64,000 nt of DNA from Octopus sinensis (Eukaryota): NCBI RefSeq assembly GCF_006345805.1, contig NC_043010.1:23250001-23314000 (forward strand). Direction: 5' to 3'. Below the pieces are notes generated by a model. That model was not told where the DNA came from, made no database searches, and saw only the letters and a list, made by a program, of their open reading frames with translations. Shown in pieces: positions 2,850 through 30,294 of this stretch (position 1 is the stretch's first letter; every line of letters starts with the position of its first letter). Both the position numbers and the translations under genes were made by a program.

Positions 2850-3504
2850 AATAATAATAAAGGGCATAATTAATTAATTAATTAATAATTAATAATTTTA
2901 CCAAAGCAGTGTTCAGTATGTAAAATGACCATTTACGGTAAATTTAAACATTACTTTATACAATTAGGGTTCAGCAAAAAAATTTGCTTTACCACATACC
3001 GAATTTTAGAAATAGCACCCAAAAAATTTAGCCATTTCTTCTACTGTAGGAAGAGTCTCCCAAACAATGTATACTCAAAAACAATTCACGTAGGCATAGA
3101 GGGAAACATAACGAAAGTTCACTCGAAATTAGATTACTTGTGAACGCGTTTCTGGGTTAATCAGATATAGAGATGCTAGAAATACATCCCTATGCTAACA
3201 TTCCCGTCATCAGCACAGAGATTTCATTAAATTTAAATTTGAGAGCACTAAAAATCGAACATACCCATCTGATTTGAGTAACCTCAGAAAACCATCTTCG
3301 ACATCCAGTACTGACGAATTCAAAACATAAGAATGAGGCTCTGCATCTTCCCTTGTCCACCTACGTGAGTTATAGAGCAACAAATTCTTACAGAAGAATC
3401 TGTAGTTTATTACCAGGAGAGAATTATATGTCCATTGCTATTTCTAAAAGTTCGGTATGTGGTAAAGTAAATTTTTTTGCTGAATCCTAATTATATAAAG
3501 TAAT
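2850..3504 (-). mobile_element. Non-coding HHR-containing element (PLE pseudo-LTR/retrozyme-like) with terminal inverted duplication, in (TA)n
   Basis: Homologous to the 27772-29583 unit (GTGTTCAGTATG.AAA..GACCATT; TTAGAAATAGCA). 3436-3504 is the reverse complement of 2950-3017. Flanked by (TA)n. Confidence 0.75.
3139..3217 (-). ncRNA. Type I hammerhead ribozyme motif (minimal stem III)
   Basis: Minus strand: UGUG-CUGAUGA-c-GGG...(inner hairpin AUAGGGAUG/CAUCUCUAU)...CCC-a-GAAAC-GC-GUU-CACA. Stem I UGUG/CACA, palindromic AACGCGUU. Confidence 0.8.
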
Positions 3505-3586
3505 ACATACATACATAATATATATATAATATATATATATAATATATATATATATATATATATATATATATATATATTATATATAG

Positions 3587-3777
3587 TTAAGGACTGCACA
3601 CGAAAAGTGGACAGTCACAACATGCTAGATATAGACGTCAAATCGCCATTCTCCACAAAAAGTTTATGTTCTCAGATCAAACTGTTTGATCTGAGAACAT
3701 AAACTTTTTGTGGAGAATGGCGATTTGACGTCTATATCTAGCATGTTGACTGTCCACTTTTCGTGTGCAGTCCTTAA
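3587..3777. repeat. Near-perfect inverted repeat (~95-bp arms, 1-nt centre at 3683) followed by a ~100-bp unique tail
   Basis: TTAAGGACTGCACACGAAAAG...GATCAAAC-T-GTTTGATC...CTTTTCGTGTGCAGTCCTTAA, with one 2-nt indel. Flanked by (TA)n. Confidence 0.95.
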
Positions 3778-3896
3778 TTGGTATATATAAATATTTTAAT
3801 CTTCGGATTCTTTCTTTAATATGCTAGACCACTGGTTCTAATTGATAAATATCAATTTTTACCCTAAATTTAATTTTATATATATATATATATATT

Positions 3897-4392
3897 TCTT
3901 TTATTTTATTTGTGTCAGTAATTTGATGGCAGCCATGCTGGAGCACCGCCTTTAGACCCCAGGACTTATTCTTTATAAGATTATAACTTAATTTTATATA
4001 TATATATATATATTCTTTTATTTTATTTGTGTCAGTAATTTGATGGCAGCCATGCTGGAGCACCGCCTTTAGACCCCAGGACTTATTCTTTATAAGATTA
4101 GAACTTACTCTATCGGTCTCTTTTGTCGAATCACTAATTTACGGGGACGTAAACACACGAATATCAGTTGCCAAGCAATTGTGGTGGGGGGGGGGGGACA
4201 AACACATATACATATATATATATATATATACGACAGGCTCCTTTCAGTTTCCGTCTACCAAATCCACTCACAAGGCTTTGGTCGCCCCGAGGCCATAGCA
4301 GAAGACACTTGCCCAAAGTGTCATGCAGTGGGACTGAACCCGGAACCATGTGGTTCGCAAGCAAGCTAATTACCACACAGCCACTCCTGCCC
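3897..4392 (-). mobile_element. Bipartite SINE family B (tRNA head + internal microsatellite + tail), with duplicated tail end
   Basis: Head GGAGTGGCTGTGTGGTAA...GGTTCAGTCCC...TTGGGCAAGTG; tail AAAGGCGGTGCTCCAGCATGG. 3897-3985 is repeated at ~4016-4100. Confidence 0.85.
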
Positions 4393-4684
4393 CTATATAA
4401 AATATATTATATATAGTATATAATATAATATATATACATATACATACATATAAAAATATATAAAACATATATAAATATATATACATATAGGAGCATATAA
4501 AAAATATAAAATATATATATATCGTGTAAATAAAGTAAAATAATGTTCATCGTTTAGAAATCTTAATCAGGTAAAATAAGCCTTATATATGCTACATATA
4601 CATACATATACACACGCACGCACACACGCACACAAACACACACACACGCACACACACACACACACACACACACATTTGTTTTTT

Positions 4685-5068
4685 TTACTTGTTTCAGTCA
4701 TTCGACTGTGGCCATGCTGGAGCACCGCCTTTAGTCAAGCAAATCGACCCCGGGACTTATTCTTTGTAAGCCCAGTACTTATTCTATCGGTCTATTTTGC
4801 CGAACCGCTAAGTGACGGAGAAGTAAACACACCAGCATTGGTTGTCAAGCAATGCTAGGGGACAAAACACAGACACAACACCACACACATCATATATATA
4901 CATATATACGACAGGCTTCTTTCAGTTCAGTCCGTCTACAAATCACTCACAAGCATTGGTCGGTCGGGGCTATAGCAGAAGACACTTGCCAAGATGCCAC
5001 GCAGTGGACTGAACCCGGAACCATGTGGTTTGTTAGCAAGCTACTTACCACACAGCCACTCCTGCGCC
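4685..5068 (-). mobile_element. Bipartite SINE family B, near full length
   Basis: Same head and tail motifs as 17551-18008 and 62641-63072. Confidence 0.85.
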
Positions 5069-27953: not shown

Positions 27954-28003
27954 TGAGAACGTACGTTTCAAGATTAGTCAAAACAACACTTATCATCAGC
28001 TCA
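27954..28003 (-). ncRNA. Type I hammerhead motif, unit 1
   Basis: UGAG-CUGAUGA-[stem II]-GAAAC-guac-GUU-CUCA, with palindromic AACGUACGUU. Confidence 0.8.
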
Positions 28004-28487
28004 GAAATTCCTTGGTTTGGATTTGGAAACACTGAAAATAAGAACATACCCTTTCGAAGATCTGCTCGTAACTAACAGTGCCAACAAATTCAAATAAGCA
28101 AGCGAAGAATCTCTGTTCTCCCCTTTCCACCAGCGTGGGTTAAAATCATCAAACACTATGCTTATTTCGGTAAAATCCGAAGCATTAATCAGAGGGAGAT
28201 TAATTATAATTTCAACAATTGAGGGCAAAATTAATTATTAATCAATTTCACCAAGTGTTCAGTATGCAAAGGGACCATTCCAGGCGAATTCAAATTATTA
28301 CATATATAAAAAGGGCTTAGTAAAATAAATTACTTTGCCGCATACTGAACTCATTAGAATAGCAGCTAAAAAACTTTTTTAAAGCTTTCTAAACTTAAAG
28401 AAAATCTCTCTCATATATAGTGTTTGCTTAATTCACTCACAAAAGTTTGGGGGTAAGGACATCGAAAAATCAAATGCTAAGGTTATT

Positions 28488-28539
28488 TGAGAACGTACGT
28501 TTCAAGATTAGTCAAAACAACACTTCTATCATCAGCTCA
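28488..28539 (-). ncRNA. Type I hammerhead motif, unit 2
   Basis: UGAG-CUGAUGA-u-AGA-AGU..ACU-aa-UCU-u-GAAAC-guac-GUU-CUCA. Confidence 0.85.
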
Positions 28540-29020
28540 GAAATTCCTTGGTTGGATTTGGAAACACTGAAAATAAGAAATACCCTTTCGAAGATCTGCT
28601 CGTAACTAACAGTGCCAACAAATTCAAAAAGCAAGCGAAGAATCTCTGTTCTCCCCTTTCCACCAGCGTGGGTTAAAATCATCAAACACTATGCTTTATT
28701 CGGTAAAATCCGAAGCATTAATCAGAGGGAGATAATTAATAATTTCAACAATTGAGGGCAAAATTAATTATTAATCAATTTCACCAAGTGTTCAGTATGC
28801 AAAGGGACCATTCCAGGCGAATTCAAATTATTACATTATATAAAAGGGCTTAGTAAAATAAATTACTTTGCCGCAACTGAACTCATTAGAAATAGCAGCT
28901 AAAAAACTTTTTTAAAGCTATTTCTAATACTTAAAGAAAATCTCTCGCATATATAGTGTTTGTTAATTCAACTCACAAAAGTTGGGGGTAAGGACATCGA
29001 AAAATCAAATGCTAAGGTAT

Positions 29021-29071
29021 TGAGAACGTACGTTTCAAGATTAGTCAAAACAACACTTCTATCATCAGCTC
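29021..29071 (-). ncRNA. Type I hammerhead motif, unit 3 (abuts the inversion junction)
   Basis: Same core as unit 2. The 5' arm of stem I ends at the 29071 junction. Confidence 0.8.
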
Positions 29072-30294
29072 GGATTTTACCGAAATAAGCATAGTGTTTG
29101 ATGATTTTAACCCACGCTGGTGGAAAGGGGAGAACAGAGATTCTTCGCTTGCTTATTTGAATTTGTTGGCACTGTTAGTTACGAGCAGATCTTCGAAAGG
29201 GTATGTTCTTATTTTCAGTGTTCCAAATCCAAACCAAGGAATTTCTGAGTGATGATAGAAGTGTTTGTTTTTACTAATCTTGAACGTACGTTCTCTCAAA
29301 TAACCTTAGCATTTGATTTTTCGATGTCCTTACCCCCAAACTTTTGTGAGTGAATTAAGCAAACACTATATATGAGAGAGATTTTCTTTAAGTATTAGAA
29401 ATAGCTTTAAAAAAGTTTTTTAGCTGCTATTTCTAATGAGTTCAGTATGCGGCAAAGTAATTTATTTTACTAAGCCCTTTTATATAATGTAATAATTTGA
29501 ATTCGCCTGGAATGGTCCCTTTGCATACTGAACACTTGGTGAAATTGATTAATAATTAATTTTGCCCTCAATTGTGGAAATTATATATATATATATATAT
29601 ATATATTTATATATTGTTATATTTCGGAATGGTCATTTTGCCAGTTTAGCCAATAAAATCACACGCACTATATATTTGGTGTTATTTTGCTTCAGTGTTA
29701 TTTATTTTTTACATTAATCTTAATCTTATTTCGGCCAGAATTCTTTCATCACACTTCTGTGACCGCATGAGTGGTCCTTTGTTTTCTTCTTTCTTATTTG
29801 TGTCTCTCCTTACTAACCGTCAGCCATTTTGTATTTTTATTGTGTCTTCATTTGCGCATGCTTATATCTCTATGTGCGTCTATGTTTAGTTAGTGTGTGT
29901 GTGGGGGATGCCTGTAATATTTGTATCTTCTGTTTATATACGTTCGTGTAATTTGTTTTTGTTGTTGTTGTTTTTGTTTATTCTTATTTTGTTCATGTGT
30001 TTACATCCACTTATTATTATTATTATCATTACGTATGCTTGTATGTATGTATGTATAACAACAATACTAGTAATAATAATAATAATAATAATAATAATAA
30101 TAATATAATAATAATAATAATAATAATAATGATGATGATAAATAAAAAAATCTTTTAAATTAAACAAAAAAAACTTATATGGTTATTTATTTCTATTTGT
30201 TTATTTATCTGTGTATTTTATCTATTATGTTTTCGGTTTTGTTTATATTGTAACCAGTTTATGGGGATCCTCTACCGTCATATGTTGTGGTGTG

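Follow-up and report, generated by a model that had tools for sequence, protein, structure and literature searches.

How do two head-to-head copies of one sequence, one of them with an extra tail, come to lie in a TA microsatellite? The question is raised by five palindromes in a 64,000-nt stretch of the genome of Octopus sinensis (assembly GCF_006345805.1, contig NC_043010.1, positions 23,250,001 to 23,314,000 of the forward strand). We call this whole stretch the window and number it from its first letter. An earlier note on the window had proposed that the palindromes are footprints of an integration mechanism of the kind used by Penelope-like elements (PLEs). We find that the five palindromes are real insertions of repeat families with a hammerhead motif into TA microsatellites. 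Throughout the genome, the two arms of such insertions end at two different fixed sites, A and B, in 108 of the 115 two-armed loci that have both ends in view, counted over the five window families and two PLE families that bear open reading frames (ORFs). The explanation that we consider probable is that both cut strands of the (TA)n target prime on one RNA, one at A and one at B, that the two cDNAs are then joined, and that the enzyme is of the Penelope type.

Each of the five palindromes consists of two head-to-head arms between (TA)n runs, and a unique tail lengthens the outer end of one arm (Table 1). The families are named by their window loci: A for 27772, B for 2850, C for 3587, D for 12640, and E for 25544. 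Site A is the fixed end of the tail-less arm, and site B is the fixed end of the tailed arm, 77–115 nt beyond A. Measured between element-specific ends in the reference copies, the tail has 105 nt in family A, 115 in B, 95 in C, 77 in D, and 85 in E. The earlier note had located all five loci correctly and had recognized their common two-arm architecture. The order that it gave, tail-less arm and then tailed arm, applies except at 2850, which is mirrored and has its tailed arm on the left. The tail is one-sided, as described, over a measured span of 70–115 bp instead of 70–100 bp. The inverted arm does stop short of the other terminus; in length, however, either arm may exceed the other, so that the tail-less arm is not just the tailed arm cut short. 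Hammerheads had been seen in three of the five loci, and their cores are indeed present at 2850, 12640, and 27772. The loci 2850 and 27772 were rightly called homologous (score 225 against a shuffled maximum of 41), and their tail-less arms end at a homologous site; the AGGG reported for that end has to be corrected, as 3486–3504 reads AGGA. Family C is at most marginally related to A and B, and families D and E are unrelated to them.

Table 1. Features of the window, with the part of each arm that matches the opposite arm.
Feature	Position	Strand	Matching part	Remarks
Family B, tailed arm	2847..3432	-	2950-3017	One full ~586-nt monomer; site B end at 2847; tail ~2847-2955
Family B, type I hammerhead motif	3132..3222	-		Long stem II; stem I UGUG/CACA; minimum free energy (MFE) fold without hammerhead
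Family B, tail-less arm	3436..3504	+	3436-3504	Site A end
Family C, tail-less arm	3587..3683	-	3587-3682	Site A end; palindrome blunt at its centre, 3683
Family C, tailed arm	3684..3876	+	3684-3777	Tail 3782-3876; hammerhead motif of the ~508-nt monomer lies upstream of the truncation
Family D, tail-less arm	12640..12820	-	12640-12816	Hammerhead core 12678-12700
Family D, tailed arm	12821..13065	+	12821-12997	Hammerhead core 12937-12959; tail 12987-13062
Family E, tail-less arm	25555..25619	-	25540-25611	
Family E, tailed arm	25610..25762	+	25621-25690	Tail 25677-25762; hammerhead motif just upstream in longer copies
Family A, tail-less arm	27772..29074	-	27776-29074	2.4 tandem monomers; site A end; hammerhead cores 27966-27999, 28500-28535, 29033-29068
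Family A, tailed arm	29070..29585	+	29070-29585	Tail 29481-29581; 2-nt junction overlap
Older single-armed relative of A and B	43172..43530	-		Ends at site A in (TA)n; scores 97 and 128 against shuffled maxima of 46 and 40
5'-truncated Hydra-type PLE	45440..50357	-		Ends at its own family's site A in (TA)n
Control long interspersed nuclear element (LINE), with reverse transcriptase	40725..42059	+		In (TA)n; inverted 5' piece 40725-40952 against 41097-41323

The searched genome has 2.72 Gb. It yielded 847–2546 first-look candidates per family, of which the best 40 were scored. Around the family A matches (37 stretches), nearly all insertions are two outward-pointing tandem arrays with a variable centre. 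The pairing of one A end with one B end holds in 33 of 33 family A loci (29/29, together with L047/48 and three loci completed later), in 19 of 19 family C loci (17/17 and two with an insert between the arms), in 21 of 21 family E loci (19/19 and two more), and in 6 of 6 family D loci, the junctions of the last being called with a short reference (microsatellite body). The older family B has 5/9. Two A ends are never paired (0/115). Two B ends are paired at L088 and L258; the flanks of both loci are mirrored, which suggests an inversion after insertion or a fold-back in the assembly. L151 (a duplicate of L138) and the tandemly duplicated L064, L259, and L333 were each counted once. A second family A search, made with a query without either end, added 12 loci, of which eight are A+B, two have one arm ending elsewhere, and two are single-armed. 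The target is TA-rich on both flanks in 27/29 two-armed loci of family A, 16/17 of C, and 17/19 of E, against a one-flank background of 7.4% of window positions.

The rule extends to two PLE families with ORFs. The first encodes a 782-aa protein with reverse transcriptase (RT) and GIY-YIG parts and a CX4CxxC linker; its tail has 48 nt, and A+B is found in 8/9 loci. [quoted passage not shown] In the 782-aa protein RVT_1 is above the cut-off and GIY-YIG is below it; we call it Neptune-like by motifs, without a tree, with Nematis as the alternative. The second family is of Hydra type, with a 960-aa protein, a tail of 178 nt, and A+B in 8/8 loci. The translations of this family and of the window frame 48126–50357 contain RWR, DKT, CNCRNKNKC, CSLC, and CIH, an assignment by motifs and without a tree; the Hydra clade is characterized by RWK-like and DKT motifs, a CxCX5C linker, no CCHH, and CxxC and CxH in the endonuclease (EN) (PMC8557442). 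Copies with an intact 960-aa frame exist, and the family has a putative hammerhead, recognized as a motif with a stem II of ~100 nt. In the window PLE, the open frame 48126–50357 is 76% identical to the 960-aa family, with one linker cysteine changed; its 743-aa frame has no match in Pfam. This copy has an asparagine-rich insert and a 2.6-kb 3' untranslated region with a long-stem-II hammerhead motif. We treat it as context and not as a demonstrated mover of families A–E.

The two arms reach 5' independently. Of 29 family A loci, 15 have the longer reach in the A arm and 14 in the B arm; in family C the counts are 5 and 6, with equal reach in 6. Fourteen loci (L144, L150, L165, L173, L186, L253, L259, L264, L265, L302, L307, L310, L314, and L330) are non-nested, each arm holding sequence that is absent from the other. 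There the A arm runs further 5' and still lacks the tail; therefore neither arm was copied from the other. This bears on a fold-back explanation, in which a single cDNA (PMC3846280 proposes an antisense RNA) folds onto itself and serves as the template for a second strand, after which an endonuclease resolves the hairpin with a stagger at A/B. Fold-back would account for variants shared by the arms and for centres that are nearly perfect, as they are at 3683, 12820, and 25615 and in 7/17 family C loci. It would also account for the recurrence of one palindromic centre at two loci whose flanks are unrelated (L128/L146 and L098/L099); candidate readings of these pairs are a hot spot, an RNA 5' end that both loci have in common, or re-mobilisation of the palindrome. 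With target priming, however, it needs the second arm inside the first, and this fails in the 14 loci. In a tandem array the nearest unit would pair equally well, yet the arm reaches of family A are more than one monomer apart in 22/29 loci. We regard fold-back as unlikely and see room for it only in the form of an extrachromosomal hairpin or in some of the short copies. A negative correlation of the arm reaches in family A (rho -0.48) is probably due to search selection and was left unused.

The arms of one locus share private variants. In family A (33 loci), 31 substitutions are common to both arms, which is 0.94 per locus against 0.06 between different loci. In the Neptune-like PLE (10 loci) the values are 7.5 within a locus and 0.24 between loci. 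The arms therefore probably come from one template. Across tandem arrays, at sites covered by at least four monomers, 134 variants are in a single monomer, 24 in all monomers, 1 in at least 75% of them, and 16 are intermediate. Of the fixed variants, 16/20 are private to one locus. The loci with 60 A>T (L037, L047/48, and L057) each add a variant of their own, fixed over all monomers and both arms. Such array-wide private variants point to a single-monomer bottleneck, either a circle or an RT that jumps back onto the same monomer. In family C, the arms start within 8 nt of each other on the monomer in 7/17 loci (p 5e-5; permutation mean 1.2); two RTs that reach the 5' end of a single RNA would give such coincidences. 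In L155 of this family the start of each arm falls precisely on position 253, where the hammerhead is predicted to cut. Together with the array-wide fixed variants, L155 gives indirect support for putative self-cleavage and a putative circular RNA. The same locus has ~160 bp of foreign sequence between its arms (L155:1250-1430), bounded by junction copies.

These data also bear on an explanation in which both strands prime on two separate RNAs in an asymmetric complex, the likeness of the arms being due to a common source or gene conversion, and the arrays to multimeric read-through or unequal exchange. Two RNAs would fit the independent arm lengths and the periodic variant patterns of long arrays, and they would make strand displacement unnecessary. 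They are hard to reconcile with the three 60 A>T loci, whose own array-wide variants need a single-monomer bottleneck, and with monomer-specific calls, of which just 4/89 are found again in the corresponding unit of the opposite arm. We judge two RNAs to be improbable.

Priming of both strands on one RNA is built on direct observations: each arm ends at a fixed site, A is paired with B, the arms vary in length independently of each other, they share variants private to their locus, overlaps at the junctions are short, the targets are TA, and two PLEs follow the same rule. With regard to the overlaps, family A junctions without inserted bases overlap by at least 2 nt in 13/20 cases (2–4 nt are favoured; null 19%). 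L045, an insertion outside TA, has a 14-nt direct duplication, of the kind that staggered nicks would produce. In the proposed sequence of events, a Penelope-type enzyme would nick both strands of the (TA)n target, and each cut end would prime reverse transcription. A protein dimer might hold one RNA with its active sites at A and at B. The trailing RT would displace the leading cDNA, and the two cDNA 3' ends would be joined bluntly or through microhomology of 1–4 nt. On a linear RNA, broken or cut by the ribozyme, both RTs would run off the same 5' end and leave a perfect palindrome. On a monomer circle both RTs would roll and give two tandem arrays, as are seen in family A. The chances seem to us evenly balanced for the more specific proposal that a PLE dimer copies one hammerhead-made monomer circle twice, so that each insertion would consist of two outward clonal arrays. 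If true, this would provide genomic evidence on the origin of PLE inverted repeats and on the use of animal retrozyme circles as rolling-circle templates by PLE enzymes.

Families A, B, and C are composed of tandem non-coding monomers, each with a type I hammerhead motif; no tandem monomers were seen for D and E. The monomer has 545 nt in A (up to 18 units in one arm), ~586 in B, and ~508 in C. One 11.5-kb family A insertion (G000:C19:41996978-42008478) has 18 monomers in one arm, with variant patterns of roughly period 5. Long copies of family D extend more than 1.4 kb further 5' as a conserved, (TA/TG)n-rich and microsatellite-rich non-coding body (L101–L127, upstream of the match), and this interspersed element may account for part of the microsatellite load of the genome. 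A candidate type I hammerhead core with stem I is found by motif in all five families, on the strand that runs toward the tail. The window copies at 3587 and 25544 are without it because they are cut short upstream and start downstream of the family motif. A loose hammerhead pattern has 12 matches in the window against 2.8 expected, two of which (40797 and 41221) are inside the LINE. Among the 150 of 279 matches listed for an Rfam scan of the window there is no hammerhead; the microRNA matches listed there are sub-threshold and lie on microsatellites and palindromes only.

Predicted circular folds of the families are compact, about 5.5–8.7 standard deviations below shuffles. In A, B, and C a predicted stem of 11–13 bp, in which sequence upstream of A pairs with the tail, encloses site A (z -3.0 to -4.4); the enclosing stem is non-significant in D (z -1.0) and E (z -0.4). 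Its 13 pairs are each kept in 24–26 of 26 distinct A and B sequences. The changes in it are mostly one-sided, so covariation support is weak. TATA follows both sites in families A–C and site A in D and E; judged by its letters, it could pair with the nicked (TA)n primer end. In the two ORF-bearing PLE families the possible primer-template match at the sites is only 1–2 nt. A CCC motif before both sites was noticed post hoc.

As to the mover, the view that the palindromes are the footprint of PLE-type integration is borne out: the tail length is fixed per family across copies, a point that the earlier note had named as a check, and two ORF-bearing PLEs obey the two-end rule. The features of an insertion unit of an endonuclease-bearing (EN+) PLE are present, namely the head-to-head inverted 5'-truncated copy (5/5 window loci and 115 loci), the one-sided tail, and the type I hammerhead motif. 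One mechanism acting on several TA-targeting families, as the note also held, agrees with the data; one common enzyme does not emerge from them. A match of the arms to the 3' ends of ORF-bearing PLEs was another check named in the note; no linked match was found among 80 PLE loci from two protein searches. Two finds near PLE sequence were set aside. A GIY-YIG fragment 1.1 kb from the family C copy L137 is a separate insertion, and family D ends that abut the Hydra-type PLE (2/50 loci, opposite sense) are read as neighbours in one (TA)n.

Several observations weigh against copying of one RNA by a Penelope-type enzyme. No ORF-bearing element similar to A–E is found in 30 + 50 PLE loci from two protein searches or in the window PLE, other PLE clades not being searched, and no RT + GIY-YIG ORF lies within A–E units in the loci read, where E is known to ~0.3 kb 5' and D to ~1.5 kb. 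One arm ends elsewhere in 5/115 loci. Single-armed copies are many: 4/36 first-set loci of family A, 8–10 of 30 in C and E, and most of D (within 1.5 kb). The pairing counts come only from the best 40 candidates of each family, and the C, D, and E queries ended at site B. Unshared arm substitutions in family A are more numerous than shared ones (42 against 31) and could stem from assembly noise. The longest arrays (X033, L047/48, and X052) contain periodic mosaics, so that some of them may have grown after they were inserted or may stem from an oligomeric template. Coincident starts are non-significant in family E (4/13, p 0.09; 6/19 loci were dropped since the reference L162 holds a palindrome of its own) and in family A (1/29, p 0.67). 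Microhomology is not enriched at family C junctions (2/6), and 11/31 family A junctions have inserted or unresolved bases. The hammerhead fold is not the MFE structure in any of the three sequences folded (3/3). No RNA source is listed for family A; run X9, guessed to be RNA, contains pieces of the families, which is not evidence of transcription.

L1-type twin priming also starts from both target strands on a single RNA, with a variable second site and with arms free of overlap. In the present loci that site is fixed, and one stretch is copied into both arms. Ordinary twin priming of a (TA)n target, with the enzyme of an RTE or of another non-LTR (long terminal repeat) element, deserves attention because the RT-bearing LINE at 40725–42059, which we take from its motifs to be of RTE type, also targets (TA)n: its family mostly ends there and has an inverted 5' piece in 4/30 loci. 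In the window copy this piece is a duplicate of ~230 bp from within the sense part, a departure from classic twin priming. The four pieces have four different outer ends, and at two loci (L222 and L231) the piece abuts the sense part without overlap, in contrast to the fixed site A and the overlapping arms of families A–E, which makes a LINE origin very unlikely. Least credible of all are fold-back sequencing chimeras or miniature inverted-repeat transposable elements (MITEs), because, against the many small indels between monomers (typical of unpolished long reads), the mirrored flanks at two loci, and the lack of any bridging of the window's own junctions in the five runs examined, mirrored flanks occur in just 2/74 loci (0/28 in A, 0/18 in C, 1/19 in E, and 1/9 in B), contigs of runs X2 and X6 (depth ~30–135) and X7 (~5), whose library type is not recorded, have head-to-head joints at many positions, and the unequal ends, variable arm lengths, and variable centres leave no fixed symmetric terminal inverted repeats such as MITEs have, as the earlier note had argued.

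Much of the architecture is familiar. The inverted arm, the one-sided tail, the two start sites, and the (TA)n preference are already published. Available descriptions of EN+ PLE insertions report the same head-to-head inverted 5'-truncated copy, one-sided tail, partial tandems, junction palindromes, and microhomology, and the Hydra and Naiad clades target (TA)n (PMC8557442; PMC3846280). The tails here have 48–178 nt against 30–40 nt in the published EN+ PLEs (PMC8557442; PMC3846280). Unlike in those accounts, five families here are without an ORF, the tail is obligatory in two-armed loci (A+B), and either arm may be longer. In vitro, PAc (Poseidon of Anolis), a predicted dimer, nicks AT-rich DNA and extends both of its strands, and two internal RNA start sites bound the tail (PMC11167929). 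The available text of that study demonstrates neither the pairing of both sites in one event nor a single RNA template, and reports no primer-template homology, as compared with the TATA at both sites of A–C and at site A of D and E. Our counts fit the step left open there, in that one event would use both sites on one RNA. The same text calls the steps after first-strand synthesis unvalidated, and PMC8557442 treats the formation of tandem and inverted PLE insertions as an open question, as far as its available text goes.

Metazoan non-LTR retrozymes are the second point of comparison. Their tandem monomers, too, are non-coding and low in GC, contain one type I hammerhead motif, and have compact circular folds, and PLE mobilisation and circular RNA templates have been proposed for them (PMC7229834; bioRxiv 10.64898/2026.07.22.740005); in the available part of PMC7229834 the mobilisation of retrozyme circles by PLEs is a hypothesis. 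The monomers here, of 508–588 nt and known from DNA alone, are longer than the ~170–400 nt given for retrozymes, and the accessible text of neither source describes retrozyme arrays with the insertion footprint of a PLE; the word 'inverted' is absent from the one (PMC7229834) and confined to a reference title in the other (bioRxiv 10.64898/2026.07.22.740005). Opposite-strand hammerhead pairs 100–700 bp apart are in print (PMC4209133). A repeat annotation of octopus lists 31 recently active PLE families, and its main text is without hammerheads or retrozymes, as far as it was available (PMC13282606). Neither a strict pairing of A with B nor the use of one template, likely a circle, turned up in the literature searched; subscription papers and supplements may contain them. 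Young, many-copy, long-tailed families give countable rules, namely an A and a B in each event, a single template, and arm lengths that are independent of each other, and these are directly testable in the existing in vitro system. Routine annotation would misfile the elements as MITEs or hairpin genes.

A few further features were seen in passing. The window has, at 34765–39447 (+), an element with two ORFs, one with a CCHC knuckle and the other for an endonuclease/RT, presumably an L1/Tx1-type LINE. Two older inverted repeats, ~80% alike, lie at 57138–57352 and 55001–55442. Protocadherin and C2H2 zinc-finger frames occur in the flanks of family loci. In a contig of run X2, a family B head-to-head joint (2980 to 3442) has CCCTAACCCTAACCCTAA, three telomere-like repeats, between its arms.

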